A stretch of 64,000 nucleotides of DNA, taken from an uncultured Lentisphaerota bacterium (lineage in GTDB: Bacteria > Verrucomicrobiota > Kiritimatiellia > CAIQIC01). The notes beneath the pieces are model-generated. The model was not told the DNA's origin. It saw only the letters and a program-made list of their open reading frames with translations, and did no database searches. Each line of letters begins with the position of its first letter. Position 1 is the stretch's first letter. The stretch lies in contig CAISWQ010000100.1 in assembly GCA_903889245.1 (NCBI GenBank), forward strand, positions 37,260 through 101,259, given 5' to 3'. Positions 5,247 through 34,214 of the stretch are shown here, piece by piece. Position numbers and translations under genes: made by a program.

Positions 5247-5607
5247 ATTCTCCGGCCGGCTGCGCAGCGTGCGTTGCGCACTGCGCGGACTCGGCGTGAT
5301 GCTCGCCTCGCAGCCCAACGCCTGGCTTCATGCCGTGTGTACCACAGCGGCGCTCGCGACGAGTTGGGCCTGCGAGCTGACCGCGTTGGAGTGGTGCGCG
5401 ATCGTTACCGCCATCGTCGCCGTCTGGGTGGCGGAAGGCTTGAACACCGCGCTGGAATTGCTGGCCGACGCCATCCGGCCGGAGTTTCATCCGCTGATCG
5501 GCCGGGCCAAGGACGTGGCCGCCGGCGCGGTGCTGGTGGCGGCGCTTGGCGCCGTCGTCAGCGGCGCATGGGTGTTGGGGCCGCGCCTGTTGTCAGCCTC
5601 GGACTGA
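5230..5607 (+). CDS. dgkA: Diacylglycerol kinase (DgkA family)
   Basis: Three TM helices plus the E-x-LNTA-lE-x-laD signature (AEGLNTALELLAD). Start at MNRRFEF within track ORF 5101..5607. Overlaps the radical-SAM gene 3' end by ~17 bp. Confidence 0.8.
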   Translation: MNRRFEFSGRLRSVRCALRGLGVMLASQPNAWLHAVCTTAALATSWACELTALEWCAIVTAIVAVWVAEGLNTALELLADAIRPEFHPLIGRAKDVAAGAVLVAALGAVVSGAWVLGPRLLSASD

Positions 5608-22140: not shown

Positions 22141-23425
22141 GGACGAGCGCGCCGTGGCCGTAGAAGGTGCCGGCGATGGCGGCGATCATCAGGCAGGCGA
22201 GCGTCGCCGCCAACAGCGCGCGGAAGGCGACCGCCGCGAGGTTCCGCGTCTGGTTCGGCGCGAGCGCCGCGGTGCCGCCGACGAAGATCGCGATGCTCGG
22301 GATGTGCGCGAAGCCGCAGAGCGCATAGCTCGCCAGCACCGCGCTGCGCGGATCGTGCAGCGCGCCGCTGGCCATCAGCCGCGCGAGTTCCTGGTAGGCA
22401 GGAATCTCGGTCAGGACGAAGCGCAGTCCGAGCAGGCGGCCCACCTCCCACGCGTCGGCCGGCGAAACACCGATCAGCAGCGCGAAGGGATAGAAAACGT
22501 AGGCGAGCAGGTTCTCCAGCCGCAGGTTCCAGTGGACGTGGAAGATTTTTTCGATGAGCACGGCGATGCCATCGAGGCCGAGGTTGAGCAGCTCCATCAG
22601 GCCGATGAACGCGAGCAGCAGGACGATGACGCCCATGACGAGCTTGCCGCCGGCGTTCGCGCCGTTGATCGCGGACTCGATCAGGCTCGCGGGTTTTTCG
22701 TAATGCGGCGGCACGATCTGGCCGAGCGTCTCCGGCTGCTCCGTCTCCGGCATCAGCAGCTTCGCCATGACGATGGCCGCGGGCGCGCCGAGCAGCGAGG
22801 CGCTCATCAGGTGGCCCGCGATGGTCGGGAACGACTGGTGCAGAAGCATGACGTAGAGGCCGAGCGTGCTCGAGGCGACCGTCGCGAAGCCGGAGGTCAG
22901 CACGAGCGCCAGCTCCGAGCGCGTCATCGTGGCGAGGTAGGGGCGGACGACGACCGCGGCCTCGATGCCGACGAAGATGTTGCTCGCCGTCGCCAGCGAC
23001 TCCGCGCCGCTGATGCGCAGCAGGCGGGTGAACAGGCGCGTGAAGCCGTTGACGATGTGCTGCATCACCTTGAGGTAATAGAGCACGTCCATCAGCGTCG
23101 CGAAGAAAACGATGGTCGGCAGCGCCTGCAATGCGAGGATGAAACCGGGCGAGCCCGGCTGGCCCGGTCCGGCGGCGAGCGGGCCGAAGCAGAACTTGAT
23201 GCCCGCTTGCGCGGCGTCGAGCACTTTCATCACGGCGTCGTTGAGCCAGAGGAAGAGCGTCGTGCCCGCCGGCACGAAGAAGATGAACGCGCCGAAGACG
23301 AGCTGCAGCGCGAGCCCACCGGCCACCGCGCGCCAGTTGAACACCTTGCGGTTGGCCGAAAGCAGCCAGCCGAGAAAAATCAGCACGAACAGGCCGCCGA
23401 AGCTGATCAGGTTATAGCGATTCAT
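22127..23425 (-). CDS. nupC: NupC/CNT-family concentrative nucleoside transporter
   Basis: CNT-family TM topology and conserved segments (GFILALQALPTIVFF..., GIEAAVVVRPYL, FAHIPSIAIFVGG); start at MNRYNLISFGG within track ORF 22127..23488. Confidence 0.85.
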   Translation of the reverse strand: MNRYNLISFGGLFVLIFLGWLLSANRKVFNWRAVAGGLALQLVFGAFIFFVPAGTTLFLWLNDAVMKVLDAAQAGIKFCFGPLAAGPGQPGSPGFILALQALPTIVFFATLMDVLYYLKVMQHIVNGFTRLFTRLLRISGAESLATASNIFVGIEAAVVVRPYLATMTRSELALVLTSGFATVASSTLGLYVMLLHQSFPTIAGHLMSASLLGAPAAIVMAKLLMPETEQPETLGQIVPPHYEKPASLIESAINGANAGGKLVMGVIVLLLAFIGLMELLNLGLDGIAVLIEKIFHVHWNLRLENLLAYVFYPFALLIGVSPADAWEVGRLLGLRFVLTEIPAYQELARLMASGALHDPRSAVLASYALCGFAHIPSIAIFVGGTAALAPNQTRNLAAVAFRALLAATLACLMIAAIAGTFYGHGALVLTPK

Positions 23426-23526
23426 GGTGTTCTCCCGCGCGCCGGACTCTAGCAAATCCCCGCCGTGGTTCCGCATGAATTTCGCCATCGGCCTGCAACG
23501 AACAAAACCAATCCAAGGGCCGCGGT

Positions 23527-23585
23527 CTGTAGCGGCGGCCTATGGCGGCCGACGGCGACCACAGGTCGCCGCTACAGCGGAACAA
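23527..23585. repeat. 60-bp imperfect-palindrome element, copy 1 (CTGTAGCGGCGGCC...GGTCGCCGCTACAGCGGAACAA)
   Basis: Followed by further GC-rich hairpins (gcggggttttcaaccccgc; gtgggcgggagctacagctcccgcccac) and a C9 homopolymer. Confidence 0.75.
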
Positions 23586-23814: not shown

Positions 23815-24120
23815 ATGATTGCGGAAGTCAGTCGCGTGGGGAAACGGGGTACGGTGGTGCTGCCGGCCAGCCTGCGGCGGCGGTTCGGCATGGAGGAAGG
23901 CGCCCTGCTGATGGCCGAGAGCCATGAGGATGGCATCCTGCTGCGGCCCGCGGCCGTGGTGCCGATGGAAACCTACTCGCCCGCCCGCAAGGCGGAATTC
24001 CTGCTGAACAATGCTGTCACCCCGGCGGACTATCAGCAGGCCGTGCAGGATGTTCGGGCGCTGGGCCTCGATCCGGCGCAGATCAAACATCGCAAACCCA
24101 AGGGCGCGGCGCGCGCATGA
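23815..24120 (+). CDS. vapB: AbrB/MazE/SpoVT-family antitoxin (VapB-like)
   Basis: N-terminal swapped-hairpin beta-barrel signature (VGKRGTVVLPASLRRRFGMEEGALL); 4-bp overlap with the downstream PIN gene. Confidence 0.8.
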   Translation: MIAEVSRVGKRGTVVLPASLRRRFGMEEGALLMAESHEDGILLRPAAVVPMETYSPARKAEFLLNNAVTPADYQQAVQDVRALGLDPAQIKHRKPKGAARA

Positions 24121-24512
24121 AGCGTGTCTTTCTGGATGCCAATGTCCTGTTCTCCGCCGCGTGGCGCGAGGAAAACGGCCTGCTGAAACTCTGGCGACTG
24201 GCGGGCGTGGCCTTGGTGACCTCCGCCTATGCTGCCCGCGAAGCCGAAATCAATCTGCCGGACGACGCCCAGCGCCAACGCCTGCGTCATCTTCTCCAAC
24301 GTGTTGACGTTCTGCCACCCGCCACAGCCCTGCCTCCCCTGCCGTCCGGCGTGCACTTGCCGGCCAAGGACGCACCGATCTTGCAGGCGGCCATCGCCGC
24401 CGATGCCACTGTGCTGCTGACCGGCGATGTGACACACTTCGGTCCCTATTTTGGCAAGCGACTTGGCGGGGTGCAGGTGCTGCCGCCCGCCGCGTTCCTA
24501 GCCGCCGGTTGA
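24117..24512 (+). CDS. vapC: PIN-domain ribonuclease toxin (VapC-like)
   Basis: VFLDANVL... start with conserved acidic residues (D6, E, D near the C-terminus LLTGDV); ATGA overlap with vapB. Confidence 0.8.
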   Translation: MKRVFLDANVLFSAAWREENGLLKLWRLAGVALVTSAYAAREAEINLPDDAQRQRLRHLLQRVDVLPPATALPPLPSGVHLPAKDAPILQAAIAADATVLLTGDVTHFGPYFGKRLGGVQVLPPAAFLAAG

Positions 24513-24540: not shown

Positions 24541-24603
24541 CCCTGTAGCGGCGGCCTGTGGCCGCCGACGGCGACCGCAGGTCGCCGCTACAGCGGAACA
24601 AAC
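24541..24603. repeat. 60-bp imperfect-palindrome element, copy 2
   Basis: cctgtagcggcggcctgtggccgccgacggcgaccgcaggtcgccgctacagcggaacaa, followed by the tgtgggcggggtttccaaccccgc ... gcggggttgcaaaccccgcccaca long hairpin (24626-24700). Confidence 0.8.
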
Positions 24604-24838: not shown

Positions 24839-25246
24839 ATGGCGGGCATTAATGACATGACAAACGACACAGTCATTATTCACGGAAGTCCGTGGAAGGC
24901 GATTGATATACAAGATGCTATTGCCGTTTGTCGTGGTCGCACTTGGACATTTCACAAGTGGGAAGCATCACCAGCACTGATTCAGAAGTCCGGCACGACT
25001 TCCAAATTCATAGGCCAGAAATACGATCCGACGAAATACAGACTCGATCCTAAAGGTTGGACGCACGATCATTGTCAAATTTGCTGGTGGACGATAAGTG
25101 ACGCACGAGACGAGGAAAGCAATTCTGGATTTACAGATGGCCGCGATTGGATTTGTACCGAATGTTTCAATAAATTCATGATGGAGAAAAGGGGAGCCCA
25201 ACCACCCGCCGGAGATTATTCGCTCGAAGACGTGCGAGAACCTTAA
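24839..25246 (+). CDS. Hypothetical zinc-ribbon protein (two CxxC pairs), low-GC ORF
   Basis: HDHCQICWW...WICTEC; markedly AT-richer than neighbours; flanked by copies 2 and 3 of the 60-bp element. Confidence 0.5.
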   Translation: MAGINDMTNDTVIIHGSPWKAIDIQDAIAVCRGRTWTFHKWEASPALIQKSGTTSKFIGQKYDPTKYRLDPKGWTHDHCQICWWTISDARDEESNSGFTDGRDWICTECFNKFMMEKRGAQPPAGDYSLEDVREP

Positions 25247-25300: not shown

Positions 25301-25357
25301 TCCTGTAGCGGCGGCCTGTGGCCGCCGATGGCGACCGCAGGTCGCCGCTGCAACAAA
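25301..25357. repeat. 60-bp imperfect-palindrome element, copy 3 (3' end degenerate)
   Basis: cctgtagcggcggcctgtggccgccgatggcgaccgcaggtcgccgctgcaac; a single degenerate TTCCAAG-type palindrome lies just upstream (25271-25291). Confidence 0.75.
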
Positions 25358-27027: not shown

Positions 27028-27435
27028 TCAGGCCGGTTTGTTCTTCAGGAACCTGCCGAAGGCGAGGTCCTGTTCGCGGATGTGCGTGAGCAGCCAGTTG
27101 CCGAGGTAGTTGTTGACCGTCTCGGCGAGCTTCTGGGTGGCGCCCTCTTCCGAAAAGTCGCGCAGGATTTCCTTCAGCGTCCCGGTCAGCTCCTGGTGCT
27201 GGGCGAGTTGGGTCTTGAGGCCGGGATACTGCGCGGCGGCCATCAGCTTTTCCTCGGTGGCGAAATGGGTCTGCGTGTAGTCCGCCAGAAACTCCAGCGT
27301 CTGGCCGAGCTTGGCCGGGCCGACGTGCGCGGCGAGGGCGGCGGCGACGTCGTTGAGCCGCTTGATCCACTGTTGGTGCTGCTCATCAATTTCCGCGACG
27401 CCGACGGCCAGCTCTTTGCTCCAAGCAATCTTCAT
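27028..27435 (-). CDS. Hemerythrin (bacteriohemerythrin, HHE cation-binding domain)
   Basis: MKIAWSKELAVGVAEIDEQHQQWIKRLN... with H/E iron ligands; start re-chosen inside track ORF 27028..27786. Confidence 0.85.
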   Translation of the reverse strand: MKIAWSKELAVGVAEIDEQHQQWIKRLNDVAAALAAHVGPAKLGQTLEFLADYTQTHFATEEKLMAAAQYPGLKTQLAQHQELTGTLKEILRDFSEEGATQKLAETVNNYLGNWLLTHIREQDLAFGRFLKNKPA

Positions 27436-27497
27436 GATGTATTCTCCGTGGCGCGGAAGATAACAGATGCCGTCGCCGCGGCCAATCCCCGACCCGT

Positions 27498-27887
27498 TTA
27501 TTCGGTAGGCAGACCCAAGGACAGCCGGGCGGCAGAGCGGAAAGCGCGGCACAGCTTGCGGGCCTGCATCGCCGTCTCGCGAGTGGCGGTTTCGCCGGGA
27601 TAACGGAATTCGACGGCGGCATCGGTAAGGTGGGCAAGGTCGGAGCGGAAAGTCTCCCAGAGCGGCTCCAAAGGCAGATTGATATCCAACAGCCTGACAA
27701 GGTCGTGAATTTTCTGAATGGGCAAACCGGCGGCACACAGGCGCGCTTTCAGATATTTCTCGGCACACTGCTGGGCGTGGAAACAAATGCCGTCATAGTT
27801 GGGATTCTTCCGGGCGCGCGCCTCACGCTCCAAGGTGCTGAAATCGGCCTCGGCCTTGGCGATCCATTCAGCGACCAGCGGCTTCAT
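27498..27887 (-). CDS. HEPN-domain toxin (HepT-like)
   Basis: HEPN fold with an R-x4-6-H-like motif region (FRYPGETATRE); gene overlaps the upstream MNT gene. Confidence 0.7.
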   Translation of the reverse strand: MKPLVAEWIAKAEADFSTLEREARARKNPNYDGICFHAQQCAEKYLKARLCAAGLPIQKIHDLVRLLDINLPLEPLWETFRSDLAHLTDAAVEFRYPGETATRETAMQARKLCRAFRSAARLSLGLPTE

Positions 27888-28188
27888 ACAACACTTTGCC
27901 TTTTTCTATGATGTCGCGCATGAATTGATCGCCCAGCGCAAGCCGCCGCCTGATCTTGGCCGGTGACCTCACCAGCAGGTCCAGCGGAAACTGCGGGCGC
28001 AATTTCAGGCGCATGGCCACGGACTGTTGGATGGGCGGCTGACGCTTGCGCGAGACTACCAGCAGATCCACATCCGAGTCGGCGTGTGGTTTGCCATGGG
28101 CATAGGAGCCAAACAACACAATCCGCTCCGGACGGAATTCATCCGCCAGTCTCCGGCTGAAAGCCCTGATTTGCCTGGTCGTTACCAT
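27868..28188 (-). CDS. Minimal nucleotidyltransferase (MNT) antitoxin (MntA-like)
   Basis: GS-x9-13-D-x-D motif (LFGSYAHGKPHADSDVDLLV); start at MVTTRQIRAF within track ORF 27868..28350. Confidence 0.75.
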   Translation of the reverse strand: MVTTRQIRAFSRRLADEFRPERIVLFGSYAHGKPHADSDVDLLVVSRKRQPPIQQSVAMRLKLRPQFPLDLLVRSPAKIRRRLALGDQFMRDIIEKGKVLYEAAGR

Positions 28189-28228
28189 GACGTCATCCGT
28201 GTCGAAGCTAAGCCAAGCCCGCTGCCTC

Positions 28229-28296
28229 GGCAAGATTTCATTTCGCCGCAACCAGCAGCAGCGGGCGCGGGCAGTCGCGGATGATTTTGGCGGCGA
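28229..28296. repeat. ~68-bp direct repeat, left copy (duplicate of the uspA 3' end)
   Basis: ggcaagatttcatttcgccgcaaccagcagcagcgggcgcgggcagtcgcggatgattttggcggcga; identical except 1 nt to 31862..31929. Confidence 0.8.
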
Positions 28297-28364
28297 GCCA
28301 GCTTTCGGTTTATTGTTCCTGATGGAGTAAGGCGACAAAGGACAGTTCATAGTCGCAGCTTGAT

Positions 28365-29669
28365 CTAAGACAGTTTGAGTTCTTCTTCTGGCTTCCGTAA
28401 GGCGAAGTTCTTGGCCTTCCGAGTGGTCTGCTCTTCGACAACTCCATCCTTCACCATATGTTTCAACCAGTCTTGTAGTTGCGCTTTTCGGACCTTCAGA
28501 ATTATCACTAGTTCATCGACTTTTCGTGGCTTGTCCAAGGCGTTCACAATGAGGGGCTTTACCGTGTCATATACAGAGGCCAATAACGAGGCGGGTGTCT
28601 CACGCACAACCATTCTTTCTTCGCTTGAGGTTGTTGAGGGCTCCATGTATGTCGGCGGCGGAATCTCGTTCTTGGACTGGGCCTGCTCGACTGATTCTGA
28701 CATTACGGGTGCAGTCTCGGCCGGCGCACTCGCGGATTGGAGTGCTTTATTAAGGTTGGCGGACATCGCCTCTGCCGGGAGAGGGATACCTCCTATTCGT
28801 AATAATTCGGTGTTTCCTTTCGGCACATTGGGCCCAGTTCTGATGAAAACAGGCCGGCCGCTCTTGCGCCGCAATTCCTCATCGGCACCCGCCCAGGTGC
28901 CACCCTCCTGATAGTCTGAACTGACTACAACCGCGAAGTCGGCCAGCGCGTAGATATACTTGTTCCGGCCCATCGCGTTGCCAACGTTGAACCCCGCTTC
29001 CGGGTTGTACGTGGAGATCAACACCAGTTGGCCGCTACGAATACCCTCGCGGTACTTCCCCGAAACCGCCGCTCGCAAGAGGCTATCGGCCATGACCCCG
29101 ATGACAGTCCCGCCCTCCTCAAACGCGCCGTGCATGGCGGTTTCGTCAACCCCGCGCGCCGCGCCGGAAATCAACTGCATGCCGGACTGAGCCGCGCTAC
29201 GTCCCACGGCGCGCGCGAACGCCTCCGCTTCCGCGTCGATGTGCCTGGATCCTACGACAGCCAATCCGCCTTTGGACAGCAAGGACCGGTCTCCCGCGCC
29301 ATATAGGATTGGCGGTGCGCAGCGCTTGAGGTGTTGCTTGAGCTTATGTGGATAGGCTTCGTCACTACGGCAGAGGACCCAAAGACCCTTGTTCACCCAT
29401 TTTTCAATGGCAATCGCCATGCTCGCCCCGCGTGCCAGCAGGGCCTTCATCCGTGCCGGTCCCACGGGCGCAAAGGCGTCACTCAAAGCCCCTTGGTGCT
29501 CTTCGTTCAGAAGATCCGCAGGCCACCATTTCTTACTGACCAACCACGCCGCAACTTCATCGTATTCCTTGATGTTCAGCGGTTGCGCGCCGATGTCATC
29601 GCCTGCGCCAAACCGCCCGCACAGAAGGAGAATGGCCTTCGCATTCTCCGTGATTTGCTCAGTCGTCAT
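28365..29669 (-). CDS. DprA/Smf-like (SLOG Rossmann) protein with C-terminal winged-helix-like domain; candidate antitoxin partner (PsyrA/ShosA-like)
   Basis: LAVVGSRH..., ISGAARGVDETAMHGAFEEGGTVIGVMADSL..., NRNKYIYALADFAVVV: DprA Rossmann signature. Confidence 0.8.
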   Translation of the reverse strand: MTTEQITENAKAILLLCGRFGAGDDIGAQPLNIKEYDEVAAWLVSKKWWPADLLNEEHQGALSDAFAPVGPARMKALLARGASMAIAIEKWVNKGLWVLCRSDEAYPHKLKQHLKRCAPPILYGAGDRSLLSKGGLAVVGSRHIDAEAEAFARAVGRSAAQSGMQLISGAARGVDETAMHGAFEEGGTVIGVMADSLLRAAVSGKYREGIRSGQLVLISTYNPEAGFNVGNAMGRNKYIYALADFAVVVSSDYQEGGTWAGADEELRRKSGRPVFIRTGPNVPKGNTELLRIGGIPLPAEAMSANLNKALQSASAPAETAPVMSESVEQAQSKNEIPPPTYMEPSTTSSEERMVVRETPASLLASVYDTVKPLIVNALDKPRKVDELVIILKVRKAQLQDWLKHMVKDGVVEEQTTRKAKNFALRKPEEELKLS

Positions 29670-29681
29670 GTCTCACACTCC

Positions 29682-31799
29682 TCAATCCGTTCGCGGCGAG
29701 TTCAGCGCCAAGGCCAGGGGCAACACAGCAGGACAACCCGCCTGCCGTAGAAGCGCCGCCGCCACGGTGAACGTCCAGCGAGAATCTACCATGTCATCCA
29801 CGAGCAGGACTGGCCCGCTGGGCATACCCGTCTGATCCACCTCAAACACCCCGTCCAGATTCTTCGCCTGCTGAAAACTGTTCTGCATGTGTTTCTGTTG
29901 TTCGTTCTGTCGAATCTTCTTCAGACACGGCACAAACGGAATTCCGATTCGCGCCGCCAAACGACGGGCAAAGTCTGGTACGAGGTCGGGGTGTGTCAGC
30001 GATGGTATGCAGGTCAGCCATGCCGGTGGCGGTTGCGGCTTCCACTCCTCAAGCATTTGCAGGCAACCGTCCGCCAGTTCGTCCCGGAACTTACCGATCT
30101 TGTACTTGTCCTCTCGGACCATGTGCCCCCAGCCAGCATCTCCCCACAGCGACAGCGCCCGCCCCTGTTCGGCCATGATGTCCATACCGATGGCGGCTCC
30201 CTTCAACGGGTAGTGCGCGAAGATGTCCTTGGCGGGCCACTTCTTGCGTGGCTCGACCGACTGGTAACTTCGCTTTAGGAAGATGGCCGCGCGATTGGCG
30301 AGGTCAATGTTGACCGTCGTCGGAATCAGGTCGCGCCGGAGGCAATTCGCACACTTGCCACAAGCTTGCACCGTCTTGTCATCAAGCGCCCGCCCGAGAT
30401 AGACCATGAGACATTCCTTCGTCTGCATGTAGTCAATCATCTGCGCCTGCTCCGCTTGGCGGAGTTCACAAAGCCGGCTAATCTTCTCATGGTTCATCTG
30501 GTAGTTGACGGGTGTAGCGTGCCAGGCACTCTTGATCTTCGCCACCGGCGACGGCGTCTCAACAGCCAGCAGTTTCAGGCACTTCTGGATGTCGCTATAG
30601 GACAGGTTCAACTGCTTCTGCATCATCGGGACCGACAGACCGCCGTCGGCAATATTCAACGCGCCAAGAATTTTGTCCACATGTGCCTGGGGCGGGAATG
30701 CGCTTCGAATGAAGAAATCCGTAATCTCCTTGTCTTCTTCCCCGCCCATCAAGATCCCGTAGGCATAATCCACGGCCCTGCCGGCGCGGCCGACTTGCTG
30801 GTAGTAATGCACCACAGAACCAGGTCGCTGGAAGTGGACTACAAAACCAAGGTCCGGCTTGTCGAATCCCATGCCAAGGGCGACCGTGGCAACCAGTGCC
30901 TTCACCTCGTTATTCAACAGGCGGTGCTCCAACTGCTCGCGGCGTTGCTTTTCGCTCTCGGCCCCCTGTTCCTCCGCCTCAGAATCAACCTTTGAGTGGT
31001 AGGCTTCCACGTTGTACTCGTTGGCCTTCAGCCATTCCGTGACGCGCTCGGAATCCCGGACGGTCAGAGTGTAGATGATTCCGCTTCCTGGCAGGTACTT
31101 TAGATGTTCCGCGAGCCAAGCCATGCGGGCAGGCGGATTCGGAAGCCAGATGTTCTGGAGGGCCAGTGTCTCGCGGATCAGTGGGCCGCGTATCACATTC
31201 AAGGCCCCGAGTTGGTGCGCCACGTCCTTGACAACGCGGTCATTCGCCGTGGCTGTTGTCGCCAGGATGGGTATGTTCTTCGGGAGCGCTTGGAGAACTC
31301 GCACGATACGCCGGTAGTCAGGCCGGAAATCGTGGCCCCAGTCAGAGATACAATGCGCCTCGTCCACCACAAAAAGACCGACCCGGTTCGCCACCTGTTG
31401 GAGCACCCGTTCCCGGAAATCGTCGTTCGCCAGTCGTTCCGGAGAAATCAGAAGGATATCAACCTTATTCGCCAGCAACCGGGCTTCGATCGCCCGCCAA
31501 TCATCCGTGTTACTGGAATTGATTGTCTCGGCCAGAATCCCGATCCGATTCGCCGCCATGATCTGATTGCGCATCAGGGACAACAGTGGCGACACCAGTA
31601 ACGTCAAGCCCTTGCCATGGTCCCGCAGAAGCCGCGTGCCCAGGAAATAGACCATGCTTTTTCCCCAACCGGTCTTCTGGACGACCAACTGACCCTGACT
31701 CTTCAGAATCCCTTCGATACACTCCCATTGGCCGGCACGAAAATCCGCCGCCGGATGAGCGAGAGCTGTACGAAGTAACTTCAACCCGATATCCTTCAT
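29682..31799 (-). CDS. RecQ-family DNA helicase fused to a C-terminal phosphoribosyltransferase (PRTase)-like domain (PsyrT-like)
   Basis: Walker A (KTGWGKS), DEAH box (VVDEAHCISDWGHDFRPDY), helicase-C motifs, RecQ zinc-binding cysteines (CGKCANC); C-terminal GPVLLVDDMVDSRWT resembles the PRTase PRPP-binding loop. Confidence 0.82.
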   Translation of the reverse strand: MKDIGLKLLRTALAHPAADFRAGQWECIEGILKSQGQLVVQKTGWGKSMVYFLGTRLLRDHGKGLTLLVSPLLSLMRNQIMAANRIGILAETINSSNTDDWRAIEARLLANKVDILLISPERLANDDFRERVLQQVANRVGLFVVDEAHCISDWGHDFRPDYRRIVRVLQALPKNIPILATTATANDRVVKDVAHQLGALNVIRGPLIRETLALQNIWLPNPPARMAWLAEHLKYLPGSGIIYTLTVRDSERVTEWLKANEYNVEAYHSKVDSEAEEQGAESEKQRREQLEHRLLNNEVKALVATVALGMGFDKPDLGFVVHFQRPGSVVHYYQQVGRAGRAVDYAYGILMGGEEDKEITDFFIRSAFPPQAHVDKILGALNIADGGLSVPMMQKQLNLSYSDIQKCLKLLAVETPSPVAKIKSAWHATPVNYQMNHEKISRLCELRQAEQAQMIDYMQTKECLMVYLGRALDDKTVQACGKCANCLRRDLIPTTVNIDLANRAAIFLKRSYQSVEPRKKWPAKDIFAHYPLKGAAIGMDIMAEQGRALSLWGDAGWGHMVREDKYKIGKFRDELADGCLQMLEEWKPQPPPAWLTCIPSLTHPDLVPDFARRLAARIGIPFVPCLKKIRQNEQQKHMQNSFQQAKNLDGVFEVDQTGMPSGPVLLVDDMVDSRWTFTVAAALLRQAGCPAVLPLALALNSPRTD

Positions 31800-31861
31800 T
31801 AATCACTTAGCTTTTTATTGCGATGGTCTCCACCGCGAGGCTATGGCAAGCAAACCACTGC

Positions 31862-31929
31862 GGCAAGATTTCATTTCGCCGCAACCAGCAGCAGCGGGCG
31901 GGGGCAGTCGCGGATGATTTTGGCGGCGA
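31862..31929. repeat. ~68-bp direct repeat, right copy (native 3' end of uspA)
   Basis: Encodes ...AAKIIRDCPRPLLLVAAK* on the minus strand. Confidence 0.8.
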
Positions 31930-32779
31930 CGCTGCCGCTCCAGAAGGCGCTGGAACCCGCTTTGCCGTGGGTCGCCAGCACGACAAGGTCGGCGGCGAGC
32001 CGCTCTGCGGCGGCACAAACTTCGCGCGCGGGCTCGCCGCGTAAAACATGCGCCGCCGCCTGCAACGCGGGGCTGGAAGTCCCGCCCACAAGGGCGGAAA
32101 CATGCTGCTGCAGGTGCTCGCGCGCGCCACGCTCGGCGAGGTCGAGCATGATGCGCGTCGCGCTGGGCAGGAGTTGCTTGGTCAGGGCATCGGTGCCGCC
32201 CAAGGTCGCCGCGGTCGGGACGACGAACAGCAGTTCCAACTTCGCGCCGGTCGCGCGCGCGAGGCCGGTGGCGACCTGCAAACCGATCTCATGTTCCGGC
32301 TGGCCATCCTCCGGCACCAGGATCGTCCGGCACTCGAACGGCGCCGCGCCGGTGGCCGGCGGGCGGATCAGCAGCACCGGCACGCTGCCGAGACCGACCA
32401 CCTGCTGCGCGATGCGTCCAAAAATCTTCTCGTGAAACCCGCGCCGGCCGTGGGCGCACATCACGATCAGGTCGGGTGCAAGCTCGCCCTCGTGCTCGAC
32501 GATGCCGCGCGCGACATCCGCAGCGGCGGCCTCGTGGACATGACAGGCCACCTTGGTATCCGCCGGGAAAGAGCGGCGGTGGATTTCGTCGAGATAGGCA
32601 GTGGCCTCGCCCTGCTCGCGCAGGTGGCGCGCGCCGTGGATGGTGGCGGGCGCGTCGCGCTCGATGATGTGCAGGAGCGTAACGCGCGCGCCGCAGCGCG
32701 CCGCAAGCAGCGCGGCGGCCGGCAGCGCGGCCTCGGCGGGTGCGCTGCCATCGAGCGGGACAAGGATGTGCTTAACCAT
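31871..32779 (-). CDS. uspA: Tandem universal stress protein (two UspA domains)
   Basis: ILVPLDGS..., two ATP-binding G-x2-G-x9-G(S/T) regions (CAHGRRG, THGKAGS); start at MVKHILVPLDGS within track ORF 31871..32911. Confidence 0.8.
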   Translation of the reverse strand: MVKHILVPLDGSAPAEAALPAAALLAARCGARVTLLHIIERDAPATIHGARHLREQGEATAYLDEIHRRSFPADTKVACHVHEAAAADVARGIVEHEGELAPDLIVMCAHGRRGFHEKIFGRIAQQVVGLGSVPVLLIRPPATGAAPFECRTILVPEDGQPEHEIGLQVATGLARATGAKLELLFVVPTAATLGGTDALTKQLLPSATRIMLDLAERGAREHLQQHVSALVGGTSSPALQAAAHVLRGEPAREVCAAAERLAADLVVLATHGKAGSSAFWSGSVAAKIIRDCPRPLLLVAAK

Positions 32780-32805
32780 GGCTGGAGCCTCCGCGGAACA
32801 TCGAA

Positions 32806-32836: not shown

Positions 32837-32903
32837 GCGGCGCAGCAACGCTGCGCCCGCCAAGCTGGAGGGCGGCGTGTCACGCCGCCGTGTGATGACG
32901 CGC

Positions 32904-34214
32904 TTAACCATGGCCGGTACTCCCGAAGAAGAATTGCGCCACGAGATAGAGGTTCAACGCCACGATCAGGGCGGCGATGATGACCGCGACGAGGGTGGTC
33001 AGCGGCCGGTTGACCAGCACGCCCATCACCTCACGCCGGCGGGTGAACCACACCAGCGGGATGACGGCGAAGGGCAGGCCGAAGCTCAACACGACCTGGC
33101 TGATCACCAGCGTCCGCGTCGGGTCGAGGCCGAGCCAGATGACCACGAGCGAGGGCAGGATCGTCACCAGCCGGCGCACCCACACCGGGATATGCCGCCG
33201 CAGGAAGCCCTGCATGATCACCTGCCCGGCGAGCGTGCCGACCGACGATGACGAGAGGCCGGAGGCGAGCAGCGAGACGGCGAAGATGACGCCCGCCGCC
33301 TTGCCGAGCAGCGGCTCCAGCGTTTTGTAGGCCGACTCCAGCGAGCCCACGTCCGTCAGCCCCGCCTTGTGGAACGTGGCGGCGGCCATCATCAGCATCG
33401 CCATGTTGATCAAACCGGCGAGGCCCATCGCGAGGGTGACATCGGCGATCTGGTAGCGGAAGAGGCGCTTGAGCAGCGATGGCTCGCGAACGACGATGCG
33501 GTTCTGCGTCAGCGAGGAATGCAGGAAGATGACGTGCGGCATGACCGTGGCGCCGAGGATGCCGGTGGCGAGCAGGATACTTTCTGTGCCACGGAATTGC
33601 GGCACGACCGCGCCGAGGGCCGCGGCCTTCCAGTCGGGATGGCCGAGCAGGGTCTCGATGAGGTAGCAGACGGCGATGACGCCGACGAACGCGGTGATCG
33701 CCGCCTCCAGCGGGCGGAAGCCGCGCCGTTCGAGGCCGAGCAGCAGGAACGTGAACGCCGCGGTCAGCAGGCCGGAGAGCCACAGCGGAATCCCAAACAA
33801 CAGGTAGAAGCCGACCGCCGCGCCGAGGAACTCCGCGAGGTCGGTCGCCATCGCGACGATTTCCATCACGACCCACATCAGCCACGTCAGCGGGCGCGGG
33901 AAATGTTCGCGGCACAGTTCGGCGAGGTTGCGGCCGGAGGCGATGCCGAGCTTGGCGGAGAGCGTCTGGATCAGCATCGCCATCAGGTTGCTGGCAAGCA
34001 CGACCCACAGCAGCGTGTAGCCAAACTGCGCGCCGCCGGAGATGTTCGTGGCGAAGTTGCCGGGGTCCATGTAGGCGATGCTGGCGATGAACGCCGGGCC
34101 GAGGAACGGCAGCAGCCGGCGCGGCCCGCGGCGTTCGCCGCCGCCGCTCAACACCTGCTCGGCCGTTGCCTGCGTCGCGGCGTCGGCAGCGGTTCTGACG
34201 TTCTCATCACTCAT
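32904..34214 (-). CDS. mntH: NRAMP-family divalent metal (Mn2+/Fe2+) transporter
   Basis: DPGN motif (YMDPGNFATNI), MPH motif (ATVMPHVIFLHS), 11 TM; start at MSDENV within track ORF 32904..34715 (upstream is repeat read-through). Confidence 0.85.
   Translation of the reverse strand: MSDENVRTAADAATQATAEQVLSGGGERRGPRRLLPFLGPAFIASIAYMDPGNFATNISGGAQFGYTLLWVVLASNLMAMLIQTLSAKLGIASGRNLAELCREHFPRPLTWLMWVVMEIVAMATDLAEFLGAAVGFYLLFGIPLWLSGLLTAAFTFLLLGLERRGFRPLEAAITAFVGVIAVCYLIETLLGHPDWKAAALGAVVPQFRGTESILLATGILGATVMPHVIFLHSSLTQNRIVVREPSLLKRLFRYQIADVTLAMGLAGLINMAMLMMAAATFHKAGLTDVGSLESAYKTLEPLLGKAAGVIFAVSLLASGLSSSSVGTLAGQVIMQGFLRRHIPVWVRRLVTILPSLVVIWLGLDPTRTLVISQVVLSFGLPFAVIPLVWFTRRREVMGVLVNRPLTTLVAVIIAALIVALNLYLVAQFFFGSTGHG

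Follow-up and report, generated by a model that had tools for sequence, protein, structure and literature searches.

How does a small toxin-antitoxin operon come to stand in the gap between two neighboring genes, enclosed by two copies of the end of one of them, with no mobility gene at hand? The question is raised by a 64,000-nt stretch of contig CAISWQ010000100.1 (positions 37,260 to 101,259; hereafter the window), which comes from an uncultured freshwater bacterium of the PVC (Planctomycetes-Verrucomicrobia-Chlamydiae) group; related records are titled Lentisphaerae or Verrucomicrobia metagenome-assembled genomes (MAGs). A sequence-only reading of this DNA had noticed a psyrTA/shosTA-type gene pair between direct repeats at the 3' end of a universal-stress-protein (USP) gene. 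Our results show that the pair is an intact PsyrTA (RqlHI) module that was acquired horizontally, and they suggest that the repeat is probably a scar left by recombination.

The operon is an intact PsyrTA (RqlHI) module

The module comprises two genes with their spacer, leader, and trailer, all on the minus strand.

29682..31799, minus strand: psyrT (rqlH-like), 705 aa, a RecQ-like superfamily 2 (SF2) helicase with a zinc-binding Cys cluster and a C-terminal phosphoribosyltransferase (PRTase) toxin domain
28365..29669, minus strand: psyrA (rqlI-like), 434 aa, DprA-like antitoxin (PADLOC PsyrA, Pfam, structures)
29670..29681, minus strand: intercistronic spacer of 12 nt with GGAG as the psyrA ribosome-binding site; the 12-nt spacing is also found in relatives
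31800..31860, minus strand: leader of 61 nt that separates the repeat from the ATG of psyrT and is unique to the window locus
28297..28364, minus strand: trailer of 68 nt after psyrA, ending at the left repeat copy in a sharp junction that looks illegitimate

Both proteins were recognized by their PADLOC models over the full length. The 705-aa open reading frame (ORF) matched the PsyrT model PDLC03928 at E = 6e-286 (residues 6-701 on profile positions 9-685 of 689), and the 434-aa ORF matched the PsyrA model PDLC03927 at E = 1.5e-127 (residues 6-417 on positions 3-391 of 398). The helicase core spans the N-terminal two thirds of PsyrT (Pfam DEAD, 3.6e-25; Helicase_C, 8e-14) and is matched by solved RecQ structures (E = 6.7e-48 for 4q47). 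In a family alignment of 27 sequences, TGWGKS (with K47) and DEAH (146-149, with D146, E147, and H149) are invariant, as are C463, C480, C483, and C486 of the RecQ-type zinc cluster (27/27 homologues). Pfam RecQ_Zn_bind stays below its cutoff on PsyrT (21.6 versus 25 bits) and is positive in 21 of the 27 relatives. These data are in agreement with the earlier description of a full RecQ-type helicase with a Walker A motif, a DEAH box, and a Cys cluster.

The C-terminal domain, previously called PRTase-like, was examined further because the Pfam Pribosyltran match of PsyrT alone lies under the curated threshold (18.1 versus 26.3 bits). The same profile (PF00156) is positive in 21/27 family members, with a best E value of 2.7e-8, and the acidic phosphoribosyl pyrophosphate (PRPP) loop VLLVDDMVDSRWT holds three aspartates, D668, D669, and D672, that are invariant in the 27-sequence alignment. 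When an AlphaFold model of residues 500-705 (pLDDT 88, pTM 0.87) was compared with solved structures by Foldseek, the top matches were all PRTases (APRT, PurF, ComF, and ShosT), with TMq values of 0.55 for ComF and 0.48 for ShosT (8zvd). The assignment of this domain as a PRTase is supported by the Pfam matches at the family level and by the predicted fold, so that this part of the sequence-only reading also stands.

One PsyrT of Escherichia coli is 52% identical to the window protein over 99% of the length. K47 and D146 of window PsyrT align to K49 and D148 of the E. coli protein, and DMVD (669-672) aligns to DIVD, making D672 the equivalent of D663. The partner had been read as a DprA/Smf-type protein, and we obtained the same result: Pfam DNA_processg_A scores above threshold (1.1e-33), and the structure matches include DprA at 8e-8 and ShosA (9vzo). 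Together, these are the features by which a PsyrTA member is recognized, and to judge by its sequence the window copy has every one of them. It shares with known PsyrTA/RqlHI the two-gene architecture and gene order, the DprA-like partner, and the helicase and PRPP-loop residues mutated in earlier work, and it differs in coming from an uncultured PVC-group bacterium and in being known here from sequence.

The pairing had been called psyrTA/shosTA-type, and only the first half of that name holds. ShosTA resembles the window pair in combining a PRTase-domain toxin with a DprA-like antitoxin, and ShosA models and structure as well as ShosT structures match the window proteins. However, ShosT reportedly couples PRTase and pyrophosphatase activities with no helicase domain described (PMC11961720), whereas the window toxin is a fusion with a RecQ-like helicase. 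The pair is PsyrTA and not ShosTA, because its toxin carries a complete helicase and because the partner fits the PsyrA model about 100 orders of magnitude better than the ShosA model (1.5e-127 versus 4.5e-25 in PADLOC); ShosT models are absent from the 25 best PADLOC matches.

In at least four sister contigs of the same species (MAGs ERZ1426665 and ERZ1426837), psyrT is called as a 657-aa gene starting at M49, with gene spacing and remaining sequence identical to the window copy. Such a call implies, from the sequences compared, a point change within codons 1-48 (window 31655-31799), which would remove the Walker A lysine. It may represent a disabled or altered toxin allele carried by part of the population.

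Function expected from characterized members

PsyrTA, or RqlHI, is said to have been described by Sberro in 2013 among others. Further descriptions are those of Russell & Mulvey 2015 (PMC4670107) and the Millman 2022 preprint (10.1101/2022.05.11.491447). When RqlH acts alone in E. coli, the SOS response is induced and the cells filament; this toxicity resides in the PRTase domain and depends on the aspartate of the PRPP loop, and co-precipitation of RqlI with RqlH requires that same domain (PMC4670107). Mutation of the residues matching K47, D146, and D672 abolished RqlH helicase activity or toxicity, and helicase-dead RqlH mutants were likewise harmful (PMC4670107). PsyrTA gives protection against phage, and deletion of its antitoxin failed (10.1101/2022.05.11.491447). 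In the ShosTA system, ShosT binds PRPP, which it needs, and perturbs purine metabolism with DNA damage as the outcome, and the DprA-like ShosA binds single-stranded DNA and RecA and is likely the sensor (PMC11961720; PMC12961424).

By analogy with E. coli RqlHI and with ShosTA, the PRTase domain of window PsyrT would be genotoxic through its PRPP-loop aspartate, leading to SOS induction and filamentation. PsyrA would bind the PRTase domain and restrain the toxin, aided by the helicase domain. Phage infection might then remove or divert PsyrA, for example through phage single-stranded DNA or through shut-off of host synthesis, and the freed PsyrT would arrest the infected cell, a form of abortive infection. 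On this comparison, the window pair should be a toxin-antitoxin system in which diversion or depletion of PsyrA leads to arrest of the infected cell.

The USP-hemerythrin gap

The module lies between a USP gene and a hemerythrin gene, together with a second toxin-antitoxin pair.

31871..32779, minus strand: tandem USP gene, 302 aa, a core gene (Pfam Usp 4.2e-43, two domains)
27868..28188, minus strand: MNT nucleotidyltransferase, 106 aa, of a HEPN/MNT toxin-antitoxin pair (Pfam NTP_transf_2)
27498..27887, minus strand: HEPN protein, 129 aa, the MNT partner (Pfam HEPN 4.4e-21)
27434..27490, minus strand: conserved hemerythrin upstream region, the far edge of the inserted block (nhmmer profile from relatives, E=1.5e-8)
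27028..27435, minus strand: hemerythrin gene, 135 aa, the ancestral downstream neighbor of USP (Pfam Hemerythrin, synteny)

The sequence-only reading placed the module as an insertion at the USP 3' end and set a comparison with relatives beforehand as the test. This comparison did reveal empty sites. USP orthologues (77-88% identity) keep the order Nramp-USP-hemerythrin, and in four lineages (L008/L009, L010=L020, L015, and L021), whose USP is 79-84% identical to that of the window, the USP-hemerythrin gap measures only 55-85 nt. The HEPN/MNT pair is absent from L008, L010, L015, and L021 as well. In relatives, the hemerythrin upstream region begins a few bases from the USP stop, and in the window it follows directly after the HEPN stop. 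At the corresponding position, L006/L007, the closest USP relative (88%), carries another HEPN/MNT pair, which lies on the opposite strand and is only 46-57% identical to the window pair.

PsyrTA and HEPN/MNT are both insertions, because four lineages are empty and a fifth has a different, inverted pair at the same spot. On this comparative sequence evidence, the module and the adjacent pair are separate, independently acquired insertions, and toxin-antitoxin cargo has repeatedly entered the small variable spot between USP and hemerythrin. The insertion had been sized at 3.6 kb, which is right for the repeat-bounded PsyrTA unit (3.63 kb); measured against related genomes, the whole block is larger, about 4.4 kb (~27493-31870), since it includes the HEPN/MNT pair.

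A MAFFT alignment suggested that the USP-hemerythrin intergenic region was triplicated, before psyrT, MNT, and hemerythrin. We rejected this as the product of a forced alignment: an nhmmer profile built only from relatives found the true region (27490-27434, at the E value listed above) and nothing upstream of MNT or psyrT at E<=100.

Three further observations concern these neighbors. The hemerythrin upstream motif (…GGATTGG…GCATCTGCTATGTTCCGCGCC…GGAGAA…ATG) is conserved across five lineages, has a weak second match (E=0.066) in the window at 23422-23462, just upstream of a nucleoside-transporter gene, and may be a promoter or leader signature common to the lineage. In the 88% relative, a long near-perfect hairpin (GCGGCTCGGCAAGCCTCGCCCTCC…GGAGGGCGAGGCTTGCCGAGCC) follows USP (L006 3920-3975), and its 20-nt arm recurs after hemerythrin (5281-5300), bracketing the HEPN/MNT-hemerythrin block. 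At the other end of the USP gene, a 34-nt imperfect repeat (74%; window 32765-32798 and 32897-32930) lies around two candidate starts (…CTTAACCATGGC…); gene callers take the downstream one, giving 302 aa, and the 44-codon upstream extension of the ORF is probably untranslated.

A 69-nt direct repeat bounds the module

31861..31929, unstranded: right copy of the repeat, functional as the 3' end of USP (last 59 nt with the stop codon, then 10 nt of downstream sequence; CCC codon)
28228..28296, unstranded: left repeat copy, a displaced, non-functional USP 3' end (CCG codon as in relatives)

The near-identical direct repeats of about 68 bp with one mismatch that had been reported (28229-28296 and 31862-31929) were recovered by a repeat-pattern search, with 2 matches in the window against 0 expected from 100 shuffles, and one extra shared base extends them to 69 nt. 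The copies are identical at 68/69 positions. As had been proposed, the right copy is the genuine end of the tandem-USP gene. The mismatch falls in a proline codon and is synonymous: the functional copy has CCC, and the displaced copy has CCG, which is also the codon of related genomes. As far as these sequences tell, the displaced copy keeps the ancestral codon, and CCC in the functional copy is derived.

The two boundaries of the repeat are of unlike character. On the gene-proximal side, similarity stops abruptly (5/30 matches beyond the repeat, the chance level). On the distal side, it decays: the first 26-40 nt of the leader match the sequence after the left copy at 16/26 and 22/40 positions (binomial p ~2e-4, in a fixed register), and the empirical probability of at least 17/26 matches at random positions is 1.3e-4. 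This difference argues against a simple target-site duplication.

We found no inverted repeats that pair the ends of the insert and, within the window, no tRNA or known structured RNA that could have been the target. RNA folding of the repeat region was not significant (z about -1.5), and scans for promoters and terminators did not exceed the counts obtained in shuffles.

Relatives of the module and its horizontal acquisition

The PsyrT family is very large, with all of 8000 scored candidates at E<=1e-50. The 90%-identity cluster that contains window PsyrT includes Kiritimatiellia MAGs, which are among the relatives at 89-94% amino acid identity, and of the nearest full-length relatives (85-94% identical) none adjoins a USP gene. 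The G+C content is 0.52-0.60 across the module and 0.65-0.72 in both flanks. These data show that the PsyrTA operon was acquired horizontally.

The surroundings of psyrTA vary among relatives. Among contigs from PVC-group metagenomes, psyrT directly follows the type I restriction gene hsdR in L011 and overlaps the hsdR stop by 4 nt in L016-L019. In P0124, psyrTA comes after a cluster that includes a reverse transcriptase, in L012 it lies beside glycosyltransferases, and on an E. coli IncF plasmid it is situated between hsdS and hsdR. Type I restriction contexts were recorded at the following coordinates.

L011 4871-10118: PsyrTA in a type I restriction context
L016 4873-10118: the same
L018 562-5807: the same
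L039 1-7097: the same

The physical link between PsyrTA and type I restriction-modification operons is recurrent, in close as in distant relatives. In contrast, the window copy stands alone downstream of USP. Its nearest relatives belong to type I restriction operons, in most cases at the operon end, and the E. coli plasmid copy lies in one too.

Similarity of the window DNA to other PsyrTA loci runs only from 31756/31778 to 28351/28361 (in L012, to 28767), that is, over the two ORFs plus ~14 nt, and only these first ~14 nt of the psyrA trailer are common to the nearest relatives. With homology confined in this way to the ORFs, the module lacks conserved element ends. Exact 24- and 27-nt probes for the origin of leader and trailer gave no match in metagenome contigs. 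We also considered flanking repeats as a general PsyrTA property and rejected the idea: at 7 other PsyrTA loci with usable flanks there is no direct repeat longer than 12 nt, and the same test at the window locus returns the 69-nt repeat at E=5e-33. The repeat thus sets the window copy apart from these loci. Concerning carriage, there was no match among 50,697 phage genomes, and only 16 plasmid records match.

A recombination scar as the probable origin of the repeat

We favor, with a probability of roughly 0.6, the reading that PsyrTA was acquired horizontally beside the HEPN/MNT pair and that recombination, and not target duplication by a transposase, left the 69-nt repeat as a scar. On the most economical route, a closely related strain with a USP-PsyrTA arrangement would have supplied DNA to a recipient with USP-MNT/HEPN. 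One end would have been anchored by homology in or near USP, and the other would have joined illegitimately, 59 nt before the stop of the recipient's USP. An equivalent alternative is a circle carrying a USP 3' end, taken up by a single homologous crossover. Either route would restore an intact USP and strand the recipient's old 3' end beyond psyrA with no need for an element-encoded recombinase. As a by-product, RecA could loop the module out again through the 69-nt repeats.

We propose this scar because one junction is abrupt, one boundary looks like homology, USP is intact, and the derived synonymous base is in the functional copy. The decay at the distal boundary is as expected if the leader is the counterpart, diverged in the donor, of the sequence downstream of USP. 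Since no dedicated recombinase is needed, the model is consistent with the lack of one: the earlier statement that no integrase or transposase lies between the repeats proved correct, and we found none within ~10 kb on either side. Homology-facilitated illegitimate recombination, or a Campbell-type single crossover, occurs at chromosomal variable spots between core genes. The window locus resembles such cases in its single homologous anchor, single abrupt junction, and lack of mobility genes, and in that related genomes have different toxin-antitoxin or defense cargo at one position between core genes; it differs in that the process here is deduced.

Several points weigh against this reading. 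We found neither a donor allele (USP-PsyrTA-hemerythrin) nor a pre-insertion allele (USP-MNT/HEPN without PsyrTA), and because of this the route of insertion stays a matter of inference. In exact look-ups, every contig with an identical USP or MNT protein already had the full structure, none showing an empty site at strain level, and no relative is closer than 88% in USP. The signal for a gradual boundary is modest, holding in a fixed register only, with p=0.05 in a shuffle test with free local alignment. The single synonymous difference fits a mutation after duplication equally well. The recombinase search covered genes within ~10 kb in a 64-kb window, and an integrase elsewhere in the genome could act in trans. 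With regard to function, the toxicity, neutralization, and phage defense of the window copy are predictions from other members, and the 657-aa allele without the Walker A region in some sister MAGs makes function at the population level uncertain.

Alternative routes of insertion

The main rival is integration of the att type by a trans-acting recombinase. The repeats would then be attL and attR of a minimal or decayed integrative element, similar to a cis-mobilizable element (CIME), and a recombinase that is encoded elsewhere or has since been lost would have inserted a circular PsyrTA cassette with a USP 3' end and could excise it. Integration into a gene 3' end with a replacement copy is known from e14 and phage 21 in icd and from ICESt3 and integrase-less CIMEs in fda. 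The window locus has the classic architecture of these examples, with a direct repeat of a gene 3' end, a restored and intact frame, and a displaced pseudo-3' end at the far side of the insert; the functional copy is also the one with the derived base. In length the repeat falls among known att identity blocks, and a preferred entry point is suggested by the different cargo that L006 carries at the very same site. However, no recombinase lies between the repeats or within ~10 kb, and neither an integrase nor a related integrative element nor a conserved att core accompanies the locus. The closest PsyrTA loci have no conserved ends or att-like sequence in common, the 7 other loci have no repeats around them, and the L006 insert is without a duplicated USP end. 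One boundary is gradual and not sharp, and there are no terminal inverted repeats. We consider this explanation possible and, on balance, unlikely.

Clearly less probable is a long target-site duplication, in which foreign DNA would have been captured in one step at a widely staggered break or by replication template switching, with no homology between donor and USP. The near-identity of the copies (68/69), as from the recipient's own sequence, and the abrupt gene-proximal junction fit such an event, and because relatives of the cargo are found in unrelated loci, no donor with a USP locus would be required. On the other hand, the residual similarity beyond the repeat on one side only is left unexplained, and no signature of a mechanism, such as terminal repeats or a nearby insertion sequence, is present. 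Transposase-type target duplications are far shorter than 69 nt. A transposon or insertion sequence as such was rejected: it would give a short duplication of about 2-15 nt, and the locus has no paired inverted repeats and no transposase. In our view the repeat is neither a transposon target duplication nor a proven att site.

A more speculative idea, to which we attach very little credence, is that the 69-nt repeat reflects a recombinase-free "hop-in, hop-out" route for defense cassettes. A circle with a short copy of the 3' end of a core gene would enter and leave by short-homology recombination, perhaps assisted by the module's own RecQ-like helicase and DprA-like RecA loader. If true, PsyrTA would be a mobile module that assists its own movement at an entry site linked to USP.

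Independent assemblies carry the same structure

A second, independent assembly (L003) is 100% identical to the window over 3.9 kb, and the same gene order recurs in at least 11 contigs, some of them 40-104 kb long, that derive from several samples and assemblers. In an independent sample, three k=31 unitigs cover the locus: one ends at 31871, one spans 31890..28238, and one starts at 28257. At k=31, a 40-nt exact repeat predicts precisely these break points. Faulty metagenome assembly, either by chimeric joining of two strains or by collapse of a repeat, might be suspected from the MAG origin of the sequence and from the breaking of short-k unitigs at the repeat, but it is excluded by the alike contigs, by the identity of L003, and by unitig breaks that fall where a true repeat predicts.

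Short Logan contigs that end at the USP stop were considered as evidence of an empty site and set aside. Logan contigs are built at k=31, and these ends coincide with the k=31 break points of the 40-nt repeat, which makes them uninformative on excision.

Significance and further observations

The system itself is already known; what is new is a well-supported PsyrTA member in a little-studied uncultured PVC-group lineage. The repeat-bounded, stand-alone layout is an unusual detail seen at a single locus and does not amount to a new type of element. The window copy leaves knowledge of how PsyrTA works unchanged, and the module will not surprise a specialist; the scar is a useful, minor observation of natural history. 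The locus offers a natural example of small toxin-antitoxin and defense operons stacked in a tiny gap between core genes with no mobility gene. Its repeat is a concrete substrate on which one can test whether ordinary homologous recombination accounts for the gain and loss of such modules. The recurrent siting of close relatives in type I restriction operons may be of interest for the study of co-operating defense systems.

Finally, another stretch of the window contains three copies of a 45-nt, GC-rich palindromic element similar to repetitive extragenic palindromes (REP), at 23529-23573, 24545-24589, and 25305-25349, with 0-3 mismatches, where chance would give no copies. They bracket a VapB/VapC-like pair (23815-24512) and an orphan ORF (24839-25246) of low G+C content (0.49), which has CxxC motifs and no Pfam match. 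This stretch is likewise variable between relatives.

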